Of a stretch of 64,000 nucleotides of DNA, positions 12,154 to 38,275 are shown piece by piece. Location: positions 3,072,001-3,136,000 of the forward strand of contig OY970218.1 in the NCBI GenBank assembly GCA_963713975.1, in the 5' to 3' direction. The notes beneath the pieces are model-generated. The model made no database searches. It saw nothing but the letters and a program-made list of their open reading frames with translations, and was not told the origin of the DNA. Numbering within the stretch: position 1 is the first letter of the stretch; the number at the start of each line of letters is the position of its first letter. Position numbers and translations under genes: made by a program. The stretch is from an uncultured Chloroflexia bacterium. Its GTDB lineage: Bacteria > Chloroflexota > Limnocylindria > Limnocylindrales > CSP1-4.

Positions 12154-13821
12154 CTAGACCTCGACGACCACGGGGAAGACCATCGGGCGGCGCTTCGTCT
12201 GCTCGTACAGGAAGCGCGACACGCCGTCCTTGATCTGGACCTTGAGCAGCGCGATCTCGGAGATCCGGTCACCAGGCGAGTTCACGGCCACCTCGATGCG
12301 GCGGATCGCCTCCTCGATGATCCGGTCCTCCTCGGGTCCGTGGACGAACCCGCGGGTGATGATCTCGGGGCGCCCGACGACCTTGCCGTTCTGCTTGTCC
12401 ACCTGGACCACGATCATGAACATGCCGTCGTTGGCGAGCGCGCGACGGTCGCGCAGGACGATGTCGCCGACCTCGCCCACGGACAGCCCGTCCACGTACA
12501 GGTACCCGGCTGCGACCGGCTGGCCACGTCGGGCGCTGCCGTCCTCGAAGATCTCGATCGGCGTGCCGTTCTCGATGATGAACACGTTGCCGGGGTCGAC
12601 GCCGGTCTCGGTCGCCAGGCGGCCGTGCTGCACCAGCATCCGGAACTCGCCGTGCATCGGGATGAAGTAGCGCGGCTTGGTGAGCCCGAGCATTAGCTTG
12701 AGCTCCTCCTGGCTGGCGTGGCCCGACACGTGGGCCCGCTTGATCGCGTGGTAGAAGACGTTGGCCCCGGCCTTGAACAGGTTGTCGATGGTCCGCGCCA
12801 CGTATTCCTCGTTGCCCGGGATCGGGCTGGCCGACACGATCACGGTATCCCCGGGCTGGATCTCCACGAACCGGTGGTCGCGGTTGGCCATGCGGGCCAG
12901 GCCCGCCATCGGCTCACCCTGGGCCCCCGTGGTCGCGATGACCAGCTTTTCCGGCGGCACGTCCTTGATCTTGTCCTTGCCGACGACCATCGACGGCTCG
13001 TACTTCAGGTAGCCGAGGTCCGTGGCGATCCGGAAGTTCTGCTCCATGGAGCGGCCGATGACCGTCGTCTTGCGACCGAGGTCCGCGGCTGCATCGAGGA
13101 CCTGCTGGACGCGCGCGATGTTGCTGGCGAACGTGGCGATGATCACCCGCCCGTCCAGCGGCTCCATGATCTCGCGGAAGGCCTCTCCCACGATCCGCTC
13201 GGACGGCGTATAGCCCGGGTTCTCGGCGCGGGTCGAGTCCGAGAGGAGGCAGATCACGCCCTCCTCGCCCAGGCGGGCCAGGATGTGGAAGTCGGACAGC
13301 CTGCCGTCGACCGGCGTGTGGTCGAACTTGAAGTCGCCGGTGTGCACGACCGTCCCGACCGGCGTCCGCAGGGCGATGCCCATCGCGTCCGGGATCGAGT
13401 GGCCGATGCGGAACGGGATCGCCGTGAACGGCCCGATCGGCAGCTCGTCGCCGGGCTCCAGGGAGTGCAGCGGGTTGTTGTGGAGCTTGTGCTCCTTGAT
13501 CTTGTTGCCCAGGAGGCCACGGGCCAGGGTGCTGGCGTAGACCGGCACGCCGGGGAACTCGGGCAGCACGTAGGGCAGGCCGCCGACATGGTCCTCGTGG
13601 GCGTGGGTGATGAGGAATGCGCGGAGCTTGGAGCGGTTCTCCTTGAGGTAGGTCACGTCTGGAACGACGAGGTCGATGCCGAACATCTCCTCGTCGGGGA
13701 ACATCAGTCCGCAGTCGATGACGACGATGTCGTCGCCGTACTCGAACACGTAGCAGTTCTTGCCGATCTCCCCTACCCCACCGAGCGGGATGATGCGGAG
13801 CGGCGTGTTCGGATCAGCCAT
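12154..13821 (-). CDS. rnj: Ribonuclease J
   Basis: PLGGVGEIGKN, THAHEDHVG, HSIPD, TGDFKFD, GAQGEP, HVSGH. ATG at 13821. Confidence 0.96.
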   Translation of the reverse strand: MADPNTPLRIIPLGGVGEIGKNCYVFEYGDDIVVIDCGLMFPDEEMFGIDLVVPDVTYLKENRSKLRAFLITHAHEDHVGGLPYVLPEFPGVPVYASTLARGLLGNKIKEHKLHNNPLHSLEPGDELPIGPFTAIPFRIGHSIPDAMGIALRTPVGTVVHTGDFKFDHTPVDGRLSDFHILARLGEEGVICLLSDSTRAENPGYTPSERIVGEAFREIMEPLDGRVIIATFASNIARVQQVLDAAADLGRKTTVIGRSMEQNFRIATDLGYLKYEPSMVVGKDKIKDVPPEKLVIATTGAQGEPMAGLARMANRDHRFVEIQPGDTVIVSASPIPGNEEYVARTIDNLFKAGANVFYHAIKRAHVSGHASQEELKLMLGLTKPRYFIPMHGEFRMLVQHGRLATETGVDPGNVFIIENGTPIEIFEDGSARRGQPVAAGYLYVDGLSVGEVGDIVLRDRRALANDGMFMIVVQVDKQNGKVVGRPEIITRGFVHGPEEDRIIEEAIRRIEVAVNSPGDRISEIALLKVQIKDGVSRFLYEQTKRRPMVFPVVVEV

Positions 13822-17049: not shown

Positions 17050-17499
17050 TCAGGCGTCGCCTCGGTCAGGGGCCGGCCGCACCATCCACTGCTCCGGTTC
17101 CCCGAGCGGCTCGAACCCGAACCCCGCGTAGAGGCCGTGCGCGTCCTGGGTCGCGAGCATCATCCGCTTGAGGCCCTGCAGCCGGGGGTCGTCGATGATT
17201 GCGGCCATCAGCCGCTTCCCCACCCCGCGCCCGCGGTTGGACTCGTCGACGAGGACGTCGCAGATCCAGGCGAAGGTTGCCTCGTCGGTGACCACCCGCG
17301 CAAACCCGACCTGCCGACCATCGACGTATGCCCCGAAGCACAGGGAGTGCATGAGGGACCGCTCAAACACGGAACGGCTCCGCCCCAGCGCCCAGTAGGA
17401 GCGCTCCGACAGGGCCGGAAAGAGCCACCCGAGATCGAGTTCGGCCGGGTCCGTGGTGATCCGCACGTCGCCCTCGGGATACTCGAGTCCGGCCGTCAT
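17050..17499 (-). CDS. GNAT family N-acetyltransferase
   Basis: QVGFARVVTD, DVLVDESNRGRGVGKRL acetyl-CoA motif, LATQDAHGLYAGFGF. ATG at 17499. Confidence 0.9.
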   Translation of the reverse strand: MTAGLEYPEGDVRITTDPAELDLGWLFPALSERSYWALGRSRSVFERSLMHSLCFGAYVDGRQVGFARVVTDEATFAWICDVLVDESNRGRGVGKRLMAAIIDDPRLQGLKRMMLATQDAHGLYAGFGFEPLGEPEQWMVRPAPDRGDA

Positions 17500-17646
17500 G
17501 GGGTGATGGTACGCGGCATGACACAGCGGAACCCCTGCGGAGCGGTGGTTGTCCGGCCTATGATCCGGATGACCTGGCCACCGCAAATGGTGGCGCGTGC
17601 TCGTCCCGGACCGCGCCGATATGGACTGCAAAGCACCGGAGGCACC

Positions 17647-18324
17647 GTGGAAACCACCCGCAAGGCACCCTACTCCGTCTCCAACGACGGCACGGGGCCG
17701 TACGCCATGTTCACCTGCGAGTCGTGCGGGCGCGACTACCGCGCGCAGCCGGTCCTCGTGGAGGAGGTCAAGGAGACCCTCGCCAAGTCCGCCTTTGGCG
17801 GGTTCCTGCGCAACATCCCGATCGTCGGCGACGCCGCCGCGAACCAGGTCGACAACGACCGCTATCGGAACACGCTGACCAACGACGAGCTCGAGAAGGC
17901 CTGGGCAGAGGTGAAGGTCAACTTCGCCGAGTGCCAGTCCTGCCGCCGGGTCGTGTGCATCCCCGACTTCGACATGGCCTCCGGCTTCTGCAAGGAGGAC
18001 TCGCCGCGCAGCGAGGAACTCCAGGCGCGGGATGCACAGCAGGCCGGCGCAGCCGCCGCGGGCTTCGTGAGTGGCATCGCGAACGTGTTCGGGATCTCCG
18101 ATGCGATGAAGGCCGCGGCCGCCCAGCAGTCAGCTGGGGTCGCGCCGGGTGCCGCGCCGGCGGCCACGTGCGCCTCCTGCGGGGGTGCGCTGGCGGCAGA
18201 GGCGAAGTTCTGCGCCAGCTGCGGAACGCCCGTGCCCAGCAAGGCCTTCTGCACCGGCTGCGGGAAGGAGCTCGCGGCGGGCGCGAAGTTCTGCGCCCAC
18301 TGCGGCCAGCCCGCGGGCGGATGA
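17647..18324 (+). CDS. Multi-zinc-ribbon protein (C-terminal double zinc ribbon)
   Basis: GTG at 17647 after GGAGG. Cys motifs CESCG, CQSCRRVVC..C, then CASCG..AKFCASCG and CTGCG..AKFCAHCG. Confidence 0.8.
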   Translation: METTRKAPYSVSNDGTGPYAMFTCESCGRDYRAQPVLVEEVKETLAKSAFGGFLRNIPIVGDAAANQVDNDRYRNTLTNDELEKAWAEVKVNFAECQSCRRVVCIPDFDMASGFCKEDSPRSEELQARDAQQAGAAAAGFVSGIANVFGISDAMKAAAAQQSAGVAPGAAPAATCASCGGALAAEAKFCASCGTPVPSKAFCTGCGKELAAGAKFCAHCGQPAGG

Positions 18325-18363
18325 CGGCGCCCGCAGGGGAGCCGCTGCGGAACACCTGAATCG

Positions 18364-18400
18364 GAAGCGCCCCCCGGGCCCAAGGCCCGGGGGGCGCTTC
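18364..18400. terminator. 17-bp-stem hairpin between convergent zinc-ribbon gene and pnp
   Basis: gaagcgccccccgggcc-caa-ggcccggggggcgcttc perfect inverted repeat. Confidence 0.75.
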
Positions 18401-18416
18401 TCGTTGCGCGCTGGGG

Positions 18417-21002
18417 TTACTGGGCGAGGTGCCGCTGCATCGCGGCCTTGCGGGACAGGTTGACCCGGCCCTGGCGGTCGATCTCGGTGACCACCACCAT
18501 GACCTCGTCGCCCACCGACACGACGTCCTCGACAGACGGCACGTGGTAGTCGGCGAGCTCGCCGATCCGGATCAGGCCTTCCTTGCCCGGCAGGATCTCG
18601 ACGAAGCACCCGAAGGTCATCAGGCGCGTCACCTTGCCCAGGTACAGGGATCCGATCTCGACCTCGCGGGTGAGGCTCTCGATCCAGTTGATCGCCTTCT
18701 TCGAGTTCTCGCCGGAGACAGCGGCGATCTCCACCGTGCCGTCGTCCTCGACGTTGATCTCGGTACCGGTCTCCTCCTGGATCTTGCGGATCATCGATCC
18801 ACCCTTGCCGATGATCTCGCGGATCTTCTCGGGGTTGATCTTGATCGTGATGATCCGGGGGGCGAACTCGGACATCTCCTGGCGAGCCGAAGGCAGGACC
18901 GAGGTCATCTTGTCCAGGATGAACAGGCGGGCGGCGAGCGCCTGCTTGAGGCCCTCGCGGATGACCCGCTCGTCGATGCCCTTGACCTTGATGTCCATCT
19001 GCAGGGCGGTGATGCCCTCCGTGGTCCCGGTGACCTTGAAGTCCATGTCGCCGATCGAGTCCTCCTTGCCGAGGATGTCGGTCAGGACGACGAAGTTGCC
19101 GGTGTCACCGTCGAGCACGAGGCCCATCGCCGCGCCGGCGACCGGCGCCTTGATCGGCACGCCCGCGTCCATGAGGGCGAGGGTCGAGCCGCACGTCGAC
19201 GCCATGGACGTGGAGCCGTTGCCGGACACGACCTCGGACACGAGGCGGATAACATAGGGGAACTCCTCCTGCGTCGGGAGCACCGGCAGGAGCGCCCGTG
19301 CGGCGAGGTTGCCGTGCCCGATGTCCCGGCGGGACGGCCCGCGCATCGGCTTGTTCTCGCCGGTGCTGTAGGGCGGGAAGTTGTAGTGGTGGAGGTAGCG
19401 CTTGGACAGCTCGGGGCTGATGGTGTCGATCCGCTGGACGTCCGAGGACGGCCCGAGCGTGGCGACGGTCAGCGCCTGGGTCTGCCCGCGGGTGAACAGG
19501 CCGGAGCCGTGCGCGCGCGGCAGGAGGCCGACCTCGACCGAGATCGGGCGGATCTCGTCGGTGGCGCGGCCGTCCATGCGGATGCCCTCGCTGAGGACGA
19601 GCGCTCGGACGGTCTTCTTCTGGACGAGGCCGAACAGGCTCTTGCTGAACCGGGCATTGCGACGGGCTGCCTCGAGCAGGCGGGCGGACTCGTCCTTGTC
19701 GGTCCGGGTCGCCCTGACCGCGCCGGCGATGCCGTCCTTGAGTCCCTCGATCCGGCCGGGCAGGTCGTTGCCGAACCAGATCAGCAGGTTTGCCGTGGCT
19801 TCGGCGTCCGGCAGCGCGCGATGGTTCTCGCTGAGCTCGACGCCGAAGAACTTGGCCAGGGTCCCGAGCTTGTAGTTCTCGAGATCCGGGTAGCCCTCAC
19901 GAGCGATGACGAGCGTGTCCAGGTACGCGCCCTGGGGGATGCGGGTGCCGTCGCCGAGGGCTTCCTCGATGAACGCGATGTCGAACCCGACCGAGTGGCC
20001 GACGAGCGGCGCACTCCCGACGAACTCGAGCGCCTTGCGGGCGGCCTCGGCCGACGCCGGCGCGTTCTTGACGTCCTTGTCGGTGATCCCGTGCATCTGG
20101 TTGCCGACGATCGGCCGGCCCGGGTTCACGAGCGTGGACCAGCGGTCGGTGATCTTCCCGGCCTTGACCCGGACGGCGGCGATCTCGACGAGGTCGGCCA
20201 TCTTGGGATCGGTGCCGGTCGTCTCGACGTCCACGACCACGAACTCGCCGCCCGCCTTCGCCAGGTCGGCGAACTTGAGCACGGAGTCTGTGAGCGGCTC
20301 GAGGTACGGGACGAGCTTGGGCTTGCCGACCAGCTCGCGCAGCTTCTCCTGAATCTCGACCAGGGGCAGCAGGGAGCGCTGGGCGAACAGGATCGCCTCG
20401 GCCATCACGTCCTCGGGGAGGACCTTGACGCCCGCCTCGACCATCATGATCGCGTCGCGGGTGCCGGAGACGACCAGGTCGAGCTCGGAGTCCTGGAGCT
20501 CGGTGTAGGTCGGGTTGAGGACGAACTCACCATTGATCCGGCCGACGCGAACGGCGCCGACGGGACCCTGGAACGGGATCTCGCTGATGGACAGGGCGGC
20601 GGACGCCGCGATCGTCCCGAGGATGTCCGGGTCGTTCTCCTGGTCCGTGGACAGCACGGTGACCACGAGCTGGACGTCGTCCTTGTAGCCCTCGGGGAAC
20701 AGCGGACGGATCGGGCGGTCCGTGAGCCGGGCAGCGAGGGTCGCCGCCTCGGACATACGGCCTTCGCGCTTGATGAAGCCGCCGGGGATCTTGCCGGCCG
20801 CGTACATCCGCTCCTCGAACTCGACGGTGAGCGGGAAGAAGTCGAGACCGGGCCGCGGCAGGCTGCGGTTGGCCGTCCCGAGGACGAGGGTGTCCCCGTA
20901 ACGGAGGGTGACGGCGCCGCCGGCAAGGCCGGCGAGCTTGCCGGTCTCGAGCGTGAGCGTACGACCGCCGAACTCGATCTCGAGCGTGGTGGGTGTGGGC
21001 AC
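18417..21002 (-). CDS. pnp: Polyribonucleotide nucleotidyltransferase with inserted DEDDh exonuclease domain
   Basis: RNase PH1 (DFFPLTVE...PGGFIKREG..RLTDRPIRP), RNase PH2 (FTRGQTQ, RRDIGHG, GDMDFKV), KH (IIGKGG) and S1 domains. GTG at 21002 after AAGGAGGT gives 861 aa. Downstream of rpsO. Confidence 0.95.
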   Translation of the reverse strand: MPTPTTLEIEFGGRTLTLETGKLAGLAGGAVTLRYGDTLVLGTANRSLPRPGLDFFPLTVEFEERMYAAGKIPGGFIKREGRMSEAATLAARLTDRPIRPLFPEGYKDDVQLVVTVLSTDQENDPDILGTIAASAALSISEIPFQGPVGAVRVGRINGEFVLNPTYTELQDSELDLVVSGTRDAIMMVEAGVKVLPEDVMAEAILFAQRSLLPLVEIQEKLRELVGKPKLVPYLEPLTDSVLKFADLAKAGGEFVVVDVETTGTDPKMADLVEIAAVRVKAGKITDRWSTLVNPGRPIVGNQMHGITDKDVKNAPASAEAARKALEFVGSAPLVGHSVGFDIAFIEEALGDGTRIPQGAYLDTLVIAREGYPDLENYKLGTLAKFFGVELSENHRALPDAEATANLLIWFGNDLPGRIEGLKDGIAGAVRATRTDKDESARLLEAARRNARFSKSLFGLVQKKTVRALVLSEGIRMDGRATDEIRPISVEVGLLPRAHGSGLFTRGQTQALTVATLGPSSDVQRIDTISPELSKRYLHHYNFPPYSTGENKPMRGPSRRDIGHGNLAARALLPVLPTQEEFPYVIRLVSEVVSGNGSTSMASTCGSTLALMDAGVPIKAPVAGAAMGLVLDGDTGNFVVLTDILGKEDSIGDMDFKVTGTTEGITALQMDIKVKGIDERVIREGLKQALAARLFILDKMTSVLPSARQEMSEFAPRIITIKINPEKIREIIGKGGSMIRKIQEETGTEINVEDDGTVEIAAVSGENSKKAINWIESLTREVEIGSLYLGKVTRLMTFGCFVEILPGKEGLIRIGELADYHVPSVEDVVSVGDEVMVVVTEIDRQGRVNLSRKAAMQRHLAQ

Positions 21003-21084
21003 GTGTAAACGACCTCCTTGGTCGTGGACGGAGGAGCGACTGCGGCGGGTGGGGCCGGGTTTCGCCTGGGAGCCGTATTCGATC

Positions 21085-21108
21085 GACCCCGGGGCATGGC
21101 CCGGGGTC
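21085..21108. promoter_or_regulatory. Hairpin in rpsO-pnp intergenic region (terminator or processing structure)
   Basis: GACCCCGGG-gcatgg-CCCGGGGTC. Confidence 0.45.
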
Positions 21109-21124
21109 AGTGATGCGGCGAGTC

Positions 21125-21394
21125 CTAGCGGCGAAGGCCGAGCGAGCCGATGACGGCGCGATAGCGCGCAGGATCCTTCTTCACGAGATACGCGAGAAGG
21201 CGACGGCGCTGACCCACGAGCTTGAGGAGACCGCGGCGCGAATGATTGTCCTTCGGGAAGCGGCGGAGGTGCTCCGTCAGGTCCCGGATCCGCTCCGTCC
21301 GGAGCGCGATCTGGACCTCGGGCGAGCCGGTGTCGCCGTCCTTGACGGCGTAGGCGGCAATGACCTCTTGCTTCTTTTCCCGCGCGAGCGGCAC
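21125..21394 (-). CDS. rpsO: 30S ribosomal protein S15
   Basis: [20 protein letters not shown]...[22 protein letters not shown] at 21394 gives 89 aa. Confidence 0.97.
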
Positions 21395-21443
21395 TCGATC
21401 CTCCGACACGAACGATGGCGTGACTGTATTTCCTGTCTTTGAC

Positions 21444-21458
21444 CGGCGGAGGATAGCA
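21444..21458 (-). promoter_or_regulatory. rpsO promoter: extended -10 (TGcTATCCT) with GC-rich discriminator
   Basis: TGCTATCCTCCGCCG on the minus strand; the identical 15-mer occurs upstream of rplS. Confidence 0.6.
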
Positions 21459-21504
21459 GGCGACTGCCGCTTCGGGCAAACGCGGAGTCCCTGCAAGCCG
21501 GCAG

Positions 21505-22887
21505 TCAACCCGCCAGCGTCATCGCCAGCTCGGGCCGCAGCAGGAACGGGGGCAGGAAGGACGGCAGGTTCGAGAAAGGCAGGACGTCCGGGTGGAGATC
21601 GATCCCCAGGGCATCGCGCATGAACGCCCGGCGCGCCTCGATCCTGCGCCATGCATCAGGGTAGGCGGACGAGAACGCCTGTCGCAGGCCATCGTCGGCC
21701 AGCGCCAGGCCGTCCTCGATGTTGGTCGTGAACCAGGGCGTGCCGGTCGCCGGGATGATGTCTGCCTGGAGCGCCATCCCGGACCGGAGCTCGACCGTGG
21801 AGCCTGGGCCGATCGGCGAGTTGACCCACTCATCGAGATGGAGCTGGTGGCCCGGGTTGAGCCCGACCCCGAAGAAGGGGTCTCCCAGCCGCTGGTCGAT
21901 GATGGCCTGGAGCACGCCTCCCTGCTGCCCGACATGGAGCGCCCGATACCAGGCCGCAACGGCCTCGAAGTACGGGCCCACCAGCCGATCGACGTAGTCA
22001 CCGACACCATCCGGCAGCCCGGTGGCGTCCTCCACCACGAACCCCGCTCGACAGTTGAGCGAACCCCAGATCCCGAACGCGACGGTCAGGGGATCGCCCT
22101 TCTCGATCGGCCGGTCCCCCGGGCTGAGCAGGCCCAGGCGCGCGCGAGGCCCGGCCGTGAGCATCAGGTGGCAGGACAGCGGGGTGCCGTCCCAGCCCAA
22201 GAGGCGAACCGCCTCCGCCTCGGTCATCCCCGGCCGCAACCCGGCGAGCAGGCCGCGAATGCCGTTCGAGGTGCGGCACGCGGCATGTTCGAACACGGCG
22301 AGCTGGTCCACGTCGTTGATGACGCGCATGCCGTCGGCCGGGTCGATCAGCAGGCCGGCCGCATTCTCCACCCGCCCGGCTGCTCCAACGAGCGACCTGA
22401 TCGTGTCCGCGATGTAGGCGGGGACCTCAATCGTCGTCGGGTCGGCGAAGGTCTTCCAACCCACGACGCCCACCCGCGAGCCGGGTCCGACGCCCTCGTC
22501 CGCCAGGATCGTGGCAAGCATGCGGGAGCGATCCCGTGGCTGGCTGGGCAGGCTGAAGTCCTGGAACAGCTCCCGGCGCATCTCCAGCGGGGCCTCGCCG
22601 GCCGTCCCCCAGCACTCGTTGCCCACCAGGACGAGGGGCGGGTCGTCCGCGCCGACCACGAGCAACGCCTCCTCGAACCTGGGGTCGAACCCTGTCAGGT
22701 AGGCGACGTTCGCGCTGTGCTCCCGGTCCGCATAGACCACGATCCGGTCGTAGCCACGGCTGTCGGCGCGGGCGCGGAGCGCCACGATGCGCTCGGCGTA
22801 GCGCCCCCCGGGCAGCTCAGGCCGCGGGCCGGGTGGGCCGAACTCCGGCAGATCGATCGGAGCGAGTCGCGCAGGTCCCTCCCGCAT
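21505..22887 (-). CDS. Xaa-Pro aminopeptidase/creatinase-like (M24-fold) protein, function unclear
   Basis: [24 protein letters not shown]-domain; C-terminal NPGH..HLDEW, L..GM.LQ.D, NIEDG. ATG at 22887 overlaps the upstream stop. Confidence 0.65.
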
Positions 22888-24602
22888 CACCCGCCGCCCT
22901 CCAAGGCCGGCGGCACCCAGGGCACAGCACCGCTGGTGCCACGCTTGATCTCCACGAACTGGTTCGCGTCCACGGTGACCCACGGTCCAACCTCACCGTC
23001 CGGCCACGTCACCCGGACGTCGGCTCTCGTGGCGCCGCCCAGCCCCACGTGGAGCGGGCCGAGCCGGCCACCGATGTGTCCGCCGCCGATGGTGAGCTCG
23101 CGTCGAAGGATGGCCTCCCCCACCCTGACCTCGACGATGCTGCCGATGGCATCCCGGTTGCCGGCGGGTTGCACGACGCGGATGCCCAGCCAGCTGCCCA
23201 TCGCGGACGCGGCATCGGCCGTCCCCGCCCCGACGTTCCGCCACACCCGGACCGGCTCATCGACGTTGACCTCCACGAGGTCCGGCAGGCCGTCGAGGTT
23301 GAGGTCCGCGAGCGTCGCTCCACGGCCCAGGCCCATGCTCAGGATCCCTGCCTCCAGCGCACCCTCCGTGAACGTCCCGTCGGGCTGCCCCAGGAACAGG
23401 TTGCTGGGATCCTCCTTCGCGTAGTCCGCCACCCCGCCCACGTTGCCCTTGGAGACGAACAGGTCCACGAAGCCGTCGTTGTTGACGTCCTCAAACTCCG
23501 GGTGCCAGGCCGTCGACGGCAGGACATCGCCGCCGGTGAACGGCACGGCGGCGTTGACCCCTCGCTTGAGCGCGATGTCCCGGTACGTCGGCTGGGCGGG
23601 CCCGGCGAGCAGGGTCTGGAGCTTGTTGTCGCCCTGGCTGGTGAGATAGATCTCCGGCAGGCCGTCTCCGGTCAGGTCCTGGCTCGCGATGCCCATCCCC
23701 CAGATCTGCATGCTGACCCAGCCATCGTCGGCGGTATAGGCGCGCGGCGCGGCTCCGGGATCCATCCGCCACAGCTGGTCCGAGCCATCCGAGTAGTAGT
23801 GGCGGTCGTTGGTGACCCGCAGGTCCCTGCGGAGGGCCCCGTCCCACGAGCTGAACAGCATCGACAGCGTGCAGTAGCCCGGGGCGAGGGTCTCGGGAGC
23901 GGCGTAGCCACCCGCTTCCGTGGCGGGACGGTACAGGAGGCTCGGCTCGCAGTCGAAGGTCGGCTCGTGCGCGGCGTCGAGGGTCACGTAGTTGCCGAGG
24001 GCAAGGGTCGGCATGGCGGCGTAGCCTTCCCATGTCGCCGAGAGTGCCGTCGTCCATGCCTCGGGTGCGGCGAACCCCCAGGCCTCGTTGGCCCGCTCGA
24101 ACCGGCACCCACCCAGGCCCCGCAGGAGCACCGACTCCCCCACCCTGAGCACGGCCAGGTCCGTGCGCCCGTTTCCGTCGATATCGACCGGATAGGCACC
24201 CGTCACGCCCTCGAGGTCCGTCGCGGCATCGGCGATCCGCACGAAACGCAGCGCCCCACCGACGTCGCCGTCGTTGTGGAAGAGACCTGCCGGACCCGAG
24301 CCGCCGGCGACGTAGACATCCGGGCGGCCGTCCTCGTCGCAGTCCAGCACGGCGAGGCCTCCGCCGGTTGCATAGGTCACGCCGCCGCCGTACGTATGGC
24401 CCAGACCCGCTCCTGTGGTCTCCTCGATGAAGTGAGGCGCGCCAAGGGCAGCCTGCGGCGTGGACGACCCGACTCCGCGCACCGCCACGATGATGCCGAT
24501 CACGACGGCGACAACGACCACGACGAGTCCCGCCGCCCAACGGCCGACGCGACGCCGGCCGCCTGACCGGGGCACGATCGTCTCGCTGCCGGCCCCGCTC
24601 AC
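22887..24602 (-). CDS. CRTAC1-like protein (FG-GAP/VCBS repeats and ASPIC/UnbV C-terminus), N-terminally membrane anchored
   Basis: Repeated D.D.DG..D motifs (DCDEDGRPDVYV, DIDGNGRTDL, DLTGDGLPEI, DVNNDGFVDL, DLNLDGLPDL); NRDAIGS.VEV, LHVGLG, VTWPDG. GTG at 24602. Confidence 0.85.
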   Translation of the reverse strand: MSGAGSETIVPRSGGRRRVGRWAAGLVVVVVAVVIGIIVAVRGVGSSTPQAALGAPHFIEETTGAGLGHTYGGGVTYATGGGLAVLDCDEDGRPDVYVAGGSGPAGLFHNDGDVGGALRFVRIADAATDLEGVTGAYPVDIDGNGRTDLAVLRVGESVLLRGLGGCRFERANEAWGFAAPEAWTTALSATWEGYAAMPTLALGNYVTLDAAHEPTFDCEPSLLYRPATEAGGYAAPETLAPGYCTLSMLFSSWDGALRRDLRVTNDRHYYSDGSDQLWRMDPGAAPRAYTADDGWVSMQIWGMGIASQDLTGDGLPEIYLTSQGDNKLQTLLAGPAQPTYRDIALKRGVNAAVPFTGGDVLPSTAWHPEFEDVNNDGFVDLFVSKGNVGGVADYAKEDPSNLFLGQPDGTFTEGALEAGILSMGLGRGATLADLNLDGLPDLVEVNVDEPVRVWRNVGAGTADAASAMGSWLGIRVVQPAGNRDAIGSIVEVRVGEAILRRELTIGGGHIGGRLGPLHVGLGGATRADVRVTWPDGEVGPWVTVDANQFVEIKRGTSGAVPWVPPALEGGG

Positions 24603-26512
24603 GTGCCAGCCACACCGGCGTAGTAGCGCTGGGCCAGGGACCAGGCGCCGATCCCGCATTGGGAGCCCACGCGGCGGCCCTCGAGGTCGTCTGGCTCCAC
24701 GTGGATCCCGCCCCACAGGCGGGATCTCCCTGCCTGGTCCGCGGCGTCGAAGTACGTGGCCCACTCCAGGCGGATGTCCGTCGTCGGACCGGCTTCGAAC
24801 TTCAGCGACCCTGGCTTGATCGTGTAGGAGCTCTCCCCGCCCGGGAAGTACTCGCTGCCGGTGAACCCGGTCAGCACCTCGGCCGCGGCCCGGCTGAACG
24901 AGCTGTGGCCCGACACGTAGCCCGGGAAGGACGGCGTCACGAAGGTCGGGAGCTGGTAGGGAATCCAGTCCACCGCGCGGATCCAGCCCACGCCGGCGGT
25001 CTCGTTCTTCGGATCCTCCGGGGTTCCGGCCCAGGACAGGACCGCGATCTCGTTCTCGTGACCTGCGAGGGAGGCGTGCCGGCCCCCGGGGGCCGTGGAC
25101 GCACGGGTGATCAGCTCGATGAGGTCCGGGACCAGGGGCAGGCCCTCCGGGTCGTAGGACGGCTGCGCCGGGTCGCTCGACTGGCCCCGGCCACCCATAT
25201 AGCGGATCATCGAGATCGGCCGGACGCTGTCGTAGTAGCCCTTCAGGCCCCAGGCCGCGATCGCGGCGTCGTGGACCGCACCGTTCAGCGCGAGGTAGAG
25301 CTTCGTGTCCCACTCCAGGCGGTCGACCGGGTCACCGGTTCCGCCAACCCGGAGGTCGGGGTCGATCTCGTCCGACACGAGGTTCGCCAGCACGTTCCAG
25401 TGGCCGGGCGGCGTCTCCGAGCTGGGCCCGTCCGCCCAGAACTCGGCCATCACGCGTCCGTAGTCTCCCTGCAGGACGACGTCGGGCTCGTACGCCTGGC
25501 CCGTGACGGGGTTCACCGGGTGGCCGGTGCCATCGTCGGTGCCGAGATCGTTTGCGCCCATCGCATCCGGCGAGATGTCGATCAGGACGCCGTCCGACGG
25601 ATCGAGGAGGCTGCTGAGGCGGATCACCTCGACGGCGGCGTCCTTGTAGGCCTGGTCGGTGACGGGGTCGCCGAGCTGTGGCGGCGGACCCGGGTCGATC
25701 GGCGTGCCCGTGCCGCTGTCCACGGGAAGTGCGAATCCCTCCACGTGGCCCCAGTGGGGGCCGATGGCCTGCTGGACGCCGTTGGTGACGGGGATGCCGT
25801 TCTGCGAGATCATGTGCTCGATCTGCAGCGGCTGCCAGTGGTTCGGGTCCGTCATCGTGGCGCCCGGCTGGCTGACCACGAGGGGCGGGTTGACCGGCTT
25901 GTAGGCCGGCGCCGCGTAGCCGCCATCCTCGTTCGAGCCGTCGCCCTTGCTGTCCGCGATGACCGCAGCCGCGATGCGGTTCCCCAGTGCCGCCGGCGAG
26001 TCGCCCTCGGTCGTGACGATGTCAACCGGATAGCACAGGGCGTCCATGACGTCGGCGAACTCCGACAGCGAGTCCGAGCCGCCCGTGGCCTTGATGTACC
26101 GCTCGTTGAGGACCCGGTACGCCGCGTAGCTCATCGCCTCCTCGCGGGCGGCCGTCACGTCGTCCGCGTTGTGCTTCTCGGTCAGGAGGTAGCCGCGGGC
26201 GTTCTCATCGTAGGCGGCCCAGGCGTCCCACATCGCCACCGAGGTGTGGAACAGGTTGCGGGCATGGACGGTGGGCGCCGGCAGGGCCCTGCGGATCGCG
26301 TCCAGCAGCACCTCGTCCCAGCGACGTGCGACCGACCATTCCGGGTGGTCCGCAGCGGGCGGGCAGCTGGGAGCCGACACCCATGGCCGCGCGACGGCCA
26401 CGCCAACGCCTGCGATGACCACGAGGACGACCACCGCTGTGATCCCGGCAATCCGGCCCGTGCGCGCGCGTCGGCGCGGCGCCGGGGCGTCAGCGATCTC
26501 CGCCTGATCCAT
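24599..26512 (-). CDS. Vanadium-dependent haloperoxidase (PAP2 superfamily), probably exported
   Basis: Vanadate-site motifs WGLKGYYDSVRP, PSFPGYVSGHS, SRLWGGIH, plus FWADGP..ETPPGHW. N-terminal TM/signal segment. Confidence 0.85.
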   Translation of the reverse strand: MDQAEIADAPAPRRRARTGRIAGITAVVVLVVIAGVGVAVARPWVSAPSCPPAADHPEWSVARRWDEVLLDAIRRALPAPTVHARNLFHTSVAMWDAWAAYDENARGYLLTEKHNADDVTAAREEAMSYAAYRVLNERYIKATGGSDSLSEFADVMDALCYPVDIVTTEGDSPAALGNRIAAAVIADSKGDGSNEDGGYAAPAYKPVNPPLVVSQPGATMTDPNHWQPLQIEHMISQNGIPVTNGVQQAIGPHWGHVEGFALPVDSGTGTPIDPGPPPQLGDPVTDQAYKDAAVEVIRLSSLLDPSDGVLIDISPDAMGANDLGTDDGTGHPVNPVTGQAYEPDVVLQGDYGRVMAEFWADGPSSETPPGHWNVLANLVSDEIDPDLRVGGTGDPVDRLEWDTKLYLALNGAVHDAAIAAWGLKGYYDSVRPISMIRYMGGRGQSSDPAQPSYDPEGLPLVPDLIELITRASTAPGGRHASLAGHENEIAVLSWAGTPEDPKNETAGVGWIRAVDWIPYQLPTFVTPSFPGYVSGHSSFSRAAAEVLTGFTGSEYFPGGESSYTIKPGSLKFEAGPTTDIRLEWATYFDAADQAGRSRLWGGIHVEPDDLEGRRVGSQCGIGAWSLAQRYYAGVAGT

Positions 26513-36200: not shown

Positions 36201-37247
36201 TCAGGCCAGCTCGGCCGCCGGGTCGTCGTCCCCGTTCACGGGCTCGGGCGCCGGCGCGGGCTCGGGCGCCGGCGCGGGCACGGGATCACGCCGGCTCGGA
36301 CGACCTCCATCCGCCGGCCGCTCGGCGAGCACCTTGTGGGGATGCAGCGCACCAGTCACGGCCCGGCACACGGCCGCGATCCCGCCGTCCGGACCGACGG
36401 CCAGCACCAGTGGCGCGTCGCGGACCTCGAGCGGTCGCTTCGGGGCCGTGATCAGCCCCTCGCCCAGGCGTCGGACCTCGTCCGCGGTGACGGGAGCGTG
36501 TGGGAGAGCCTCCAGGCCCGCGTCCACTGGTCGCAGCACGCGCTGGATCCCGGCGGGCCCGTCCGCTGCGTGCTCCCGCAGCTCCTCGAACGAGATCGAG
36601 TCCTCGAGACGGAAGCTGCCGGATGCGGTGCGCACCAGGGCGCCGAGGTAGGCACCGCTCTCGAGCCGGGCACCGAGGTCCCGTGCCAGCGCGCGGATGT
36701 ACGTTCCAGCCGAGCACTCGACGTCGACCACGGCCATCGGACGGGCCGGATCGGCATCGTCCCACTCGAGCATCGTCGCCTCGTGGATGACCACGTCCCG
36801 CGGCGCCAGCTCGACGGGCTCGCCACGGCGGGCCATCTGGTAGGCGCGGCGACCCTCCACCTGCACGGCGCTGTAGACGGGGGGAACCTGGCGCAGGGGC
36901 CCCGTGAACGCCGTGAGCCCGGACTCAACCTGCTCGCGCTTCAGCGCGGGACCGGCGATCGGTGTTCGCTCGCCATCGATGTCGTCCGTCGTGGACGACG
37001 CGCCAAAGCAGATCGTCGCCCGGTATCGCTTGCGGCCGCTGAGGTGGTACTCGACCAGGCGCGTTGCACGACCCAGGAACACGGGCAGCACACCCGCCGC
37101 GAACGGGTCCAGCGTCCCGCCGTGACCCACGCGTCTCGTGGACGACAGCCGGCGCACCAGCCCCACCACGTCGTGCGAGGTGGGCCCCGACGGCTTGGCC
37201 ACGACCAGGACGCCGTCAAGCCCGCCGCGACGGTCGCGCGGGCTCAT
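36201..37247 (-). CDS. truB: tRNA pseudouridine(55) synthase
   Basis: KPSGPTSHDVV, GHGGTLDPFAAG, QVPPVYSA, GTYIRAL. Confidence 0.96.
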   Translation of the reverse strand: MSPRDRRGGLDGVLVVAKPSGPTSHDVVGLVRRLSSTRRVGHGGTLDPFAAGVLPVFLGRATRLVEYHLSGRKRYRATICFGASSTTDDIDGERTPIAGPALKREQVESGLTAFTGPLRQVPPVYSAVQVEGRRAYQMARRGEPVELAPRDVVIHEATMLEWDDADPARPMAVVDVECSAGTYIRALARDLGARLESGAYLGALVRTASGSFRLEDSISFEELREHAADGPAGIQRVLRPVDAGLEALPHAPVTADEVRRLGEGLITAPKRPLEVRDAPLVLAVGPDGGIAAVCRAVTGALHPHKVLAERPADGGRPSRRDPVPAPAPEPAPAPEPVNGDDDPAAELA

Positions 37248-38275
37248 CGTCGGACCTCGGCCGCCAGGCGCTCTGCGACCTCGCGCACCGCGACCACGGC
37301 ATCGGCCAGCGGCAGTGGCACGGAGGCACCGGCGGCACGTGCGTGCCCTCCCCCACCGAACGCGCCCGTGAGCACGGTCGCGTCCACGCCGCCCGGCTTC
37401 GTCCGCACGGACAGGCGCGTGCTGCCGTCATCCTGCTCCTTGAGCAGCATGGAGACCTCCGCATCCTCGGACTGCGCGAGGAGGTCGATGATCCCTTCCG
37501 AGTGGGCGGGGATGGCACCGGTCTCGCCGAGATCGGCAGGAAGGAGCGTGGACCAGATCACCAGGTGGTCGGGCGATGTCCCGAGGCGGTCCAGCACCCG
37601 CCCGAACAGGCGGAGCTGCGCGTCCGGCTTCGTGCGGTAGAGCCGCCGGGAGATGTCCGACAGGGGCGCACCCTCCGCAACCAGGGCCGCCGAGACGGCG
37701 AGCGTCCGCGGCGTGGCGTTGGGGTGCGCGAAGGTCGCGGTGTCCATGACGATGCCCGCCATCAGCACATCCGCGAGCGCCCGGTCCGCGAGGCCGAGCG
37801 GCAGTCCGAGTCGCACCGCCAGCAGGGCGACCATCTCGCACGTCGCGGCCGCGTCGGGATCGATCCAGTCCGCGTCGCCGCTCCCCCCGTTCGACGCGTG
37901 GTGGTCGACGATCACGCGCGGGAGGGCGTCGAACAGGCCGGCGTTCCGGGTTGCCACGGCACCGACCCGCTCCGCGCTGGCGCAATCGGCCAGGACCAGC
38001 AGGTCGTACGCCTCGGCCGGGTCGGGGTCGGTGCGGAACCGCTCCAGGCCCGGCAGGAAGCCGTACAGGGGCGGGATGGGATCGGTGCACACGGCGGTCG
38101 CGCGACCGCCGAGCGCCTCCACCAGCAGGCAGATCCCCATCACGGCCCCGACGGTATCGGCATCAGGGTGCTCGTGGCTCACCGCCAGGACATGGCGGGC
38201 AGAGCGCAGTCGGGCAAGCACCGGCTCGGGCACGGCCTCAAGGGCGAGGGCAGACAGGTCCACCGGGCCGGTCAT
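37244..38275 (-). CDS. nrnA: DHH/DHHA1 phosphoesterase (NrnA nanoRNase/pAp phosphatase)
   Basis: HEHPDAD, VDHH, GIVMDT, FGGGGHARAAG; lies between rbfA and truB. Confidence 0.88.
   Translation of the reverse strand: MTGPVDLSALALEAVPEPVLARLRSARHVLAVSHEHPDADTVGAVMGICLLVEALGGRATAVCTDPIPPLYGFLPGLERFRTDPDPAEAYDLLVLADCASAERVGAVATRNAGLFDALPRVIVDHHASNGGSGDADWIDPDAAATCEMVALLAVRLGLPLGLADRALADVLMAGIVMDTATFAHPNATPRTLAVSAALVAEGAPLSDISRRLYRTKPDAQLRLFGRVLDRLGTSPDHLVIWSTLLPADLGETGAIPAHSEGIIDLLAQSEDAEVSMLLKEQDDGSTRLSVRTKPGGVDATVLTGAFGGGGHARAAGASVPLPLADAVVAVREVAERLAAEVRR

Follow-up and report, generated by a model that had tools for sequence, protein, structure and literature searches.

The only pnp gene of an uncultured Chloroflexota bacterium encodes a polynucleotide phosphorylase (PNPase) into which a complete DEDDh (DnaQ-like) 3'-5' exonuclease (Exo) domain has been built, in frame, between the two RNase PH domains. 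The gene occupies positions 18417..21002 on the minus strand of the window, the whole stretch of 64,000 nucleotides that was analysed (positions 3,072,001 to 3,136,000 of contig OY970218.1, assembly GCA_963713975.1). The source genome carrying the window, G000, is one contig of 3.62 Mb with an estimated completeness of 92%. The fusion recurs in three families of an abundant uncultured class, and the catalytic residues of the Exo domain are invariant. Judged from these sequence comparisons, the protein is probably a bifunctional PNPase, in which a phosphorolytic ring would carry a tethered hydrolytic DEDDh 3'-5' exonuclease, fused once and vertically inherited. PNPase is among the most conserved RNA-degrading machines, and its order of domains is taken to be the same in bacteria and in human mitochondria.

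A genome scan with PF01138 returned this pnp and one rph-sized frame only; the gene at 18417-21002 is the sole pnp of the genome. The longest minus-strand open frame, 18417..21479, would give 1020 residues from a TTG codon. The GTG at 21002, which has AAGGAGG eight bases upstream and yields a product of 861 residues plus stop identified by Pfam and NCBIfam models, is the start that makes biological sense. The gene rpsO (ribosomal protein S15; 21125-21400, minus strand; Ribosomal_S15, E 2.5e-34) lies immediately upstream on the same strand, the canonical rpsO-pnp order. The pnp frame runs through the insert without a stop or frameshift, and its G+C content is even, at 0.62-0.73 across 300-base windows. 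An initial annotation made from the letters of the window had described an 861-residue pnp product after rpsO, carrying an in-frame DEDDh domain between RNase PH domains 1 and 2 (PH1 and PH2). Each of these points is confirmed, with all of the Exo motifs lying where it had put them.

The 861-residue product retains the PNPase domain series on both sides of the insert. All coordinates of its domains are on the minus strand. PH1 (PF01138, 82.7 bits) spans approximately residues 13-143 (20574..20966; G000:C1:3092574-3092966) and is followed by the RNase_PH_C domain of the first half, identified by Pfam at residues 146-209 (20376..20567). The N-terminal part of the all-alpha domain (residues 226-252; 20247..20327) contains a predicted helix, 239-249, that leads into the Exo domain (residues 255-407; 19782..20240). 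The C-terminal part of the all-alpha domain (residues 408-482; 19557..19781), with predicted helices at 436-450 and 454-472, connects the insert to the catalytic PH2 (residues 483-616; 19155..19556), in which the phosphate- and metal-binding motifs are conserved. KH (residues 718-775; 18678..18851) and S1 (residues 781-852; 18447..18662) domains, both identified by Pfam, complete the protein. Pfam matched RNase_PH (PF01138) in two stretches (E 8.4e-51) and RNase_PH_C (PF03725) likewise in two, while KH_1 (PF00013) and S1 (PF00575) also scored above their cut-offs. With a score of 934.1 bits (cut-off 525.05), the PNPase equivalog model of NCBIfam, TIGR03591, matched two stretches that flank the insert. 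The insert itself matched RNase_T (PF00929) over the full profile (positions 1-164 of 164), with an E-value of 7.9e-27 and 95.2 bits (cut-off 24), and scored 98.3 bits in the genome scan. Pfam detected no helicase or polymerase domain in the pnp product.

All five DEDDh catalytic residues are present: D258 (codon 20229-20231), E260 (20223-20225), D341 (19980-19982), H394 (19821-19823) and D399 (19806-19808). These residues lie within a typical series of motifs comprising VVVDVETTG (20214-20240), HGIT (20082-20093), GHSVGFD (19980-20000), LDTL (19911-19922) and HRALPDA (19803-19823).

The initial annotation viewed what remains of the helical domain as shortened, which is not borne out. The distance from the GKPK to the DGR motif is 248 residues in the fused protein and approximately 88 in the canonical PNPases of the same class; subtraction of the 153-residue Exo domain leaves about 95 residues, and thus the helical domain has not been truncated. 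It has, however, diverged in sequence. Of the 81 positions of the all-alpha model PF03726, no more than 51-80 were matched, with 19.8 bits where the cut-off is 24.6, and it is the last 30 residues of the domain alone that produce this match. In AlphaFold models four helices, one before the insert and three after it, are formed by the approximately 95 residues that surround the Exo domain, and the helix of the Exo III motif runs unbroken into a predicted helix of 36 residues (396-431). The model of the module alone (residues 226-482) has a mean predicted local distance difference test (pLDDT) score of 84.9. In the full-length model (mean pLDDT 69.9; predicted template modelling score (pTM) 0.67) confidence is low at residues 49-86, 489-557 and 781-861, and pLDDT is 82-94 across the Exo and helical residues 240-480. 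A Foldseek search with the full model returned PNPases as all of its top 50 matches. The solved PNPases among those returned are all of 730 residues or less, and every one is without an extra catalytic domain.

Conservation of the two active sites suggests that both are functional. None of the 104 fused sequences compared departs from D258, E260, D341, H394 and D399, and in a set of 41 that spans all three fused families (f1, f2 and f4) and extends down to 63% identity they are again without exception. Also invariant in the 41 sequences are T261 and T262 of Exo I, H336 and F340 of Exo II, and R395, A396 and A400 of Exo III. This invariance is meaningful because the insert as a whole is only 44-47% identical between the two most distant fused families. 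Mean column conservation in the 104 sequences is 0.86 for the Exo domain, compared with 0.84 for PH1_C, the C-terminal subdomain of the first PH half, and 0.90-0.94 for the PH domains. The pattern suggests that the Exo active site is under purifying selection and is predicted to be active. On the phosphorolytic side, the GDMDFK and NGS-T/S-S stretches, to which we attribute phosphate and metal binding in the PH2 active site, do not vary among the 41 sequences and align with those of solved PNPases. The PH2 half aligns with these proteins end to end (best E 4e-99). These data suggest that the phosphorolytic sites have been retained. An alternative is that the Exo domain is catalytically silent and acts as a binding module, as a gate for phosphate or nucleoside diphosphates passing through the pore of the helical domain, or as a scaffold that holds 3' ends. 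It is very unlikely that this is so, as the five catalytic residues and the surrounding T261, T262, H336, F340, R395 and A396 are fixed in a domain that has otherwise diverged by more than half, an invariance pattern expected of a working active site.

The distribution of the fused gene was explored in a class sample of 401 genomes from five families (f1-f5) with a query that spans both junctions (residues 170-520); NCBI records title the class Limnocylindria/Limnocylindrales. In f1 the query matched 137 of 137 genomes with E-values of 1e-117 or better (one truncated sequence gave 3e-75), and in f2 all 16 genomes were matched, 14 at about 1e-128 to 1e-137 and two at about 1e-70; both families therefore carry the fusion. 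The same is true of f4, where 143 of 153 genomes were matched at 1e-42 or better, mostly at 1e-96 to 1e-108; the ten unmatched genomes are 62-92% complete. By contrast, the 92 genomes of f3 gave split pieces only (1e-7 to 5e-25) and, with one exception, are not fused, while the two of f5 were matched weakly (1e-17 to 1e-18) and are also unfused. Consistent with this view, the match of the f3 and f5 PNPases to the family model is unbroken, over positions 2-688. The exception in f3 is genome G259, which has 6% contamination and contains an f1-like piece of fused pnp (72% identity) on a contig of about 1.1 kb (G259:C380); this piece probably entered the bin as contamination. Among the genomes behind the class counts, 13-14 carry a flag as unpublished, from which no sequences were used and on which the conclusions do not depend (G087, G249, G159, G296, G384, G096, G314 and G123 from f4; G106, G091, G112, G067, G238 and G151 from f3); the phylum count for DinG described below includes a further flagged genome, G556. 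In a phylum sample of 221 genomes the fusion was found in G000 and in all sampled members of f1 (8/8), f2 (1/1) and f4 (13/13), and in none of the 198 genomes from other families.

Searches beyond these samples gave a similar picture. A protein-collection search with residues 225-480 listed 120 clusters of 71-91% identity, mostly of about 861 residues, each of which carries PF00929 together with RNase_PH domains. A scan of species representatives identified 292 stretches encoding relatives, of which 80 were kept; all 80 are from uncultured metagenome-assembled genomes, and several are on megabase contigs. A few contigs with the fused gene (L022, L074, L077, L081 and L083) are in bins titled Actinomycetota, Thermomicrobiales or Anaerolineaceae. 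These off-lineage titles are most likely submitter labels or reflect mis-binned contigs, and do not point to further lineages that carry the fusion. When the insert was searched against 1.84 billion representatives, and the best 150 of 31273 matches were considered, only members of the same family or their fragments reached 48% identity or more, and beyond the fused family identity drops to 47% or less. The ten hits outside the family that were scanned are PolC fragments, FAN1/VRR_NUC-Exo proteins, Exo-BRCT proteins or Exo-only proteins. More distant, independent fusions of PNPase to a DEDDh domain may exist beyond the reach of these searches. A count of PF00929 in the class, which is positive in 386 of 401 genomes and often in frames of 850-1000 residues, was rejected as a measure of the fusion; it is an overstatement because the best match in f3 sits in a DinG-like Exo-helicase of similar length.

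Chimeric assembly was one challenge that the initial annotation raised to its own proposal, and the fusion could in principle also reflect a mis-joined contig or a recent mobile insertion. Any such artefact is so improbable that it can be set aside. Hundreds of assemblies made independently, some with the gene on megabase contigs, share these junctions, the G+C content is even across the gene, and the Exo tree, described below, mirrors that of the PNPase core. No public sequencing run contained half or more of the sampled words of the stretch, the best share being 0.25. Short contigs of relatives, 80-95% alike, were obtained from four public runs (two DNA and two RNA libraries, from which no expression is deduced). 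These cover all 30 bins of a 1.3-kb stretch and bridge both junctions, examples being contigs that correspond to 20187-20426 and 19560-19966. The fusion is thus genuine and conserved, with its DEDDh catalytic residues invariant and its PNPase motifs intact.

The history of the fusion was inferred from trees of the PNPase core and of the Exo domain. The core tree, built from 609 columns after removal of the insert and helical columns, comprised 18 rows (L100 and L109 were dropped by a motif filter) and was rooted on four rows that represent other families in the phylum. The fused PNPases of f1, f2 and f4 form one clade in it (support 100/99) that is sister to f3 plus f5 (100/100). The Exo domains of the fused proteins likewise form a single clade (92/91) and show the same split, f4 versus f1 plus f2. 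The simplest account of these congruent trees is a single insertion in the common ancestor of f1, f2 and f4, followed by vertical descent.

The insert is of the DinG/PolC/DnaQ type, not the Orn/RNase T type. Its best NCBIfam models are the DEDD exonuclease PRK07883, PolC and DinG, and neither Orn nor RNase T is represented among the 25 best of the 65 families matched. In the Protein Data Bank (PDB) the best sequence matches are to PolC (9qpc, 5e-23; 2p1j, 7e-22), followed by the DinG of Staphylococcus aureus (4e-14), Cas2-DEDDh and DnaQ, with no match to RNase T or Orn at E 1e-5. A Foldseek search with the module model returned S. aureus DinG at E 1e-10 and PolC with a root-mean-square deviation of 2.2 over 162 columns at 36% identity. 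DinG, PolC, DnaQ, RNase T and ExoX were all matched at a probability of 1.00. In the fold ranking RNase T, ExoX, Orn and REXO2 come after DinG and PolC, and RNase T and Orn come after DnaQ as well. The DnaQ-like character proposed in the initial annotation stands; Orn and RNase T, the other DEDDh enzymes that it named, are not the closest kin. The source of the module is less clear. In the free Exo tree 19 of the 50 inner branches are open, and the PNPase-Exo and class DinG-Exo clades are not sisters; as the deep nodes do not resolve, no donor lineage can be named from it. A tree that joins the PNPase-Exo and class DinG-Exo domains, a clade chosen after the tree had been seen, was not rejected in the approximately unbiased (AU) test (p-AU 0.611); its log-likelihood exceeded that of the tree from the free search by 7.43 units. 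The insert is 36-40% identical to the class DinG-Exo domains, and the module may have moved from DinG to PNPase, which these comparisons provide as a lead rather than a demonstration.

The protein that contains the other DEDDh domain of the class, in f3, is a DinG-type Exo-helicase (RNase_T, DEAD and Helicase_C_2 domains), and it is distributed in a pattern complementary to the fusion. A search with the helicase part was positive in 38 of 39 genomes of f3 and in the one genome of f5, the unfused families, compared with 1 of 35 in f1 (35% identity, within a frame of 2041 residues), 0 of 5 in f2 and 1 of 40 in f4 (a fragment). In G000 the helicase part of the class DinG-like protein was not found by tblastn. 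Across the phylum sample a search with the full DinG-type protein was positive in 135 of 180 genomes of other families and in 1 of 20 genomes of the fused families; many of the 135 matches begin at residues 1-9 and hence include the Exo domain. As the Exo-helicase is present in f3, f5 and most of the phylum, it is ancestral and has been lost in the fused clade.

This complementarity, which the initial annotation did not foresee, raises the view that the insert is mainly a tool for DNA or R-loops, for which PNPase would be a platform and the link to RNA decay secondary. In sequence and fold the insert comes closest to the DinG and PolC exonucleases, the fused lineages are without a DinG-type Exo-helicase that is common in the phylum, and the tree in which DinG-Exo is the sister group was not rejected. 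In addition, three published reports describe functions that fit such a role. Bacillus subtilis DinG clears R-loops and degrades both single-stranded DNA and the RNA strand of hybrids (PMC12525004), B. subtilis PNPase displays 3'-5' exonuclease activity on single-stranded DNA in repair (PMC2709576), and human PNPase has been linked to R-loop homeostasis (PMC12430004). We consider this explanation possible but on the unlikely side. The host protein is the only PNPase of the genome, is encoded in the rpsO-pnp arrangement and retains its KH and S1 domains, indicating that its main life is in RNA metabolism. Furthermore, the helicase part of DinG is retained nowhere in G000, the phyletic pattern of DinG amounts to one or two events, and in the free Exo tree the two types of Exo domain are not sisters, the clade examined in the AU test having been named with hindsight.

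G000 gave no match to RNB (RNase R/II), PF01612 (RNase D type) or RNase E/G, and contains RNase J, RNase Y, RNase PH (rph) and two DHH proteins, one RecJ-sized and the other NrnA-like (DHH/DHHA1). The presence of RNase J and RNase Y without RNase E/G is indicative of a Bacillus-like toolkit for RNA decay. RNase J (TIGR00649, 592 bits) is encoded on the minus strand of the window at 12166-13797 (G000:C1:3084166-3085797), about 5 kb from pnp. Beyond the pnp insert the only PF00929 match in G000 is a stand-alone DEDDh protein of 188 residues (40 bits; G000:C1:3379669-3380169, minus strand; L002 1456-2022), which fits no Orn, RNase T or DnaQ equivalog. Many relatives are without this protein, and 7 of 13 genomes from the genus of G000 have no PF00929 match other than the pnp insert. 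RNB was detected in only 4 of the 401 class genomes (1/137 in f1, 1/16 in f2, 2/92 in f3, 0/153 in f4 and 0/2 in f5) and in 17 of 221 phylum genomes, compared with 11 of 14 control genomes, a phylum-wide scarcity that is unusual for bacteria. The idea that the fusion compensates for missing RNase R/II was rejected, as RNB is equally scarce in fused and unfused families.

With this inventory, the insert could be a dedicated nanoRNase that acts on limit products of 2-5 nucleotides leaving through the helical-domain pore, in the manner of Orn or REXO2 in trans. It is located in the domain along which a second route reaches the phosphorolytic site (PMC2723993). No equivalent of Orn or RNase T was found in G000, whose other PF00929 protein is generic, and a partnership of PNPase with REXO2 is described for mitochondria (PMC7261184). 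This role is nevertheless unlikely. An NrnA-like DHH/DHHA1 protein of 343 residues, itself a nanoRNase candidate, is encoded within the window (37244-38275, minus strand), and neither PDB sequence searches (E 1e-5) nor the fold ranking places the insert with Orn and RNase T. Orn and RNase T act as homodimers. No homodimer pairing of this kind was indicated for the insert. The finishing of oligonucleotides, a function suggested in the initial annotation, is therefore not required of the fused protein on inventory grounds, given the NrnA-like protein encoded nearby; the complementarity with DinG gives DNA or RNA-DNA hybrid ends more weight than that annotation did.

With respect to the mechanism of a bifunctional PNPase, we propose that the Exo domain entered, in a single event, the loop that follows helix 1 of the all-alpha domain. 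The ring would act phosphorolytically like other PNPases, and each protomer would add, on the face away from KH/S1, a hydrolytic site that depends on metal. In Escherichia coli PNPase the helical domain is located on the face of the torus opposite S1/KH (PMC2723993); the domain there forms part of a pore that was proposed to be a second route to the active site, used by nucleoside diphosphates and phosphate. By analogy, three Exo modules would crown this face of the fused enzyme, a location that agrees with the one put forward in the initial annotation. The long continuous helix would hold each Exo domain beside the side pore of the helical domain and near the phosphorolytic site. The hydrolytic sites would most likely trim 3' ends that are poorly handled by phosphorolysis, or act when phosphate chemistry is unfavourable; candidate ends are short remnants, RNA paired to DNA and the ends of single-stranded DNA. 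The fused lineages are without RNase R/II, RNase D, RNase T and Orn and have lost the DinG-type Exo-helicase. With regard to the substrate, RNA ends in decay or processing have about an even chance of being the target, DNA or R-loop ends are less likely, and a combination of both is less likely again. The case for RNA consists of the status of the protein as the only PNPase, the retention of KH and S1, and the fact that no other family of hydrolytic 3' exoribonucleases was found.

Several observations weigh against the proposal. The placement of the Exo domain on the ring is predicted from the position of the helical domain in E. coli PNPase; the full-length model is mediocre (mean pLDDT 69.9, pTM 0.67). 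Exo activity is a prediction from sequence, and the relatives found are all uncultured. The closest characterised kin of the insert act on other substrates: B. subtilis DinG prefers single-stranded DNA and the RNA of hybrids, and free RNA is uncut with Mg2+ (PMC12525004). The complementarity between DinG and the PNPase-Exo fusion is weak as a correlation, because it reflects one or two evolutionary events among related genomes. Loss of RNase R/II is not the driver of the fusion, being a phylum-wide background, and f3 and f5, which are not fused, manage with a canonical PNPase on the same RNase background. Finally, the presence of the NrnA-like candidate means that the insert is unnecessary for oligonucleotide finishing.

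Comparison with known systems highlights what is distinctive about the fused protein. It shares with canonical PNPases (TIGR03591; structures from E. coli, 3gcm and 7ogk, Caulobacter crescentus, 4am3, and Streptomyces antibioticus, 1e3h) the PH1-all-alpha-PH2-KH-S1 order, with the all-alpha part as predicted by the models, and the location of the gene after rpsO, but differs in the approximately 155 extra residues that constitute a second catalytic domain within the all-alpha linker. The DinG Exo-helicases (S. aureus, 8zef and 9ii8; B. subtilis DinG) provide the best fold match to the insert, with DEDDh motifs that are the same in kind; the fused protein, however, is without helicase domains, and its Exo domain is internal rather than N-terminal. 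The proofreading domain of PolC (9qpc, 2p1j), the best PDB sequence match, is likewise an insertion, located within the PHP domain (in the PolC-like hits the Pfam RNase_T match lies inside that of PHP), although the host in the present case is a template-independent phosphorylase and not a DNA polymerase.

A PH-domain ring that works with a hydrolytic 3'-5' exonuclease from the DEDD superfamily has parallels in other systems, among them the eukaryotic RNA exosome with Rrp6 and Rrp44. PNPase is reported together with RNase D in the Caulobacter degradosome (PMC4245959) and with REXO2 in mitochondria (PMC7261184). In all of these cases the ring recruits its nuclease as a polypeptide of its own, and Rrp6 and RNase D belong to the DEDDy type, whereas here a DEDDh nuclease is covalently built into each protomer of a ring predicted to be phosphorolytic. 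It is conceivable, if doubtful, that the fused protein is a single-chain counterpart of the exosome with Rrp6, in which a module derived from the lineage's own DinG would serve both RNA decay and the ends of hybrids or single-stranded DNA. Its three DEDDh modules would lie on the exit face of the active ring, beside the helical-domain pore, and a 3' end or limit fragment that stalls in the phosphorolytic site would then be passed to the hydrolytic site of that particle.

The fusion would constitute a natural experiment in which phosphorolysis has been coupled to hydrolysis, maintained by strong purifying selection in three families of an abundant uncultured class, while eukaryotes reach the same coupling through separate exosome subunits. 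The protein is compact and expressible, and would allow the question of how 3' ends partition between the two chemistries to be asked. The system also bears on the role of the poorly understood helical domain and its pore, and raises the question of whether a repair nuclease of the DinG type can be re-housed on an RNA-decay platform.

A published description of the fusion was not found in the full-text literature, subscription journals and supplementary files aside. None of the terms PNPase, exonuclease, RNase and DinG occurs in the main 2026 paper on these lineages (PMC13212565). Public databases do contain the architecture, with names assigned automatically, and it is therefore undescribed rather than unseen; the initial annotation, which knew of no description, is borne out for the printed record covered. 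The protein is annotated as "polyribonucleotide nucleotidyltransferase" or, by JGI, as "DNA polymerase III epsilon subunit family exonuclease", and the NCBI titles refer to Chloroflexota or Candidatus Limnocylindrales.

The surroundings of the gene were also inspected. A scan for promoters and terminators in 18100-21800 identified zero promoter-like sites and one terminator-like site that did not exceed shuffled sequences. The spacer between rpsO and pnp (21003-21124, minus strand) contains a 10-bp G+C-rich hairpin just past the rpsO stop, and the 141-nucleotide rpsO-pnp stretch folds at -52.1 kcal/mol (z -2.04), with 4 of 200 shuffles folding as well. By analogy with the pnp leader of E. coli, this hairpin could be an attenuator or a processing site. 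Directly upstream of rpsO is an open frame of 492 residues (21505-22983, minus strand), a putative gene with no Pfam match at E 1e-4. Convergent with pnp is an open frame on the plus strand (17137-18324), the product of which has repeated C-x2-C pairs at its C terminus and is zinc-ribbon-like; it overlaps a GNAT acetyltransferase frame on the opposite strand (17050-17631), and perhaps only one of the two is real in the region of overlap. Further upstream, 22887-25313 on the minus strand encodes a protein of 808 residues with FG-GAP-like repeats and an ASPIC/UnbV domain.

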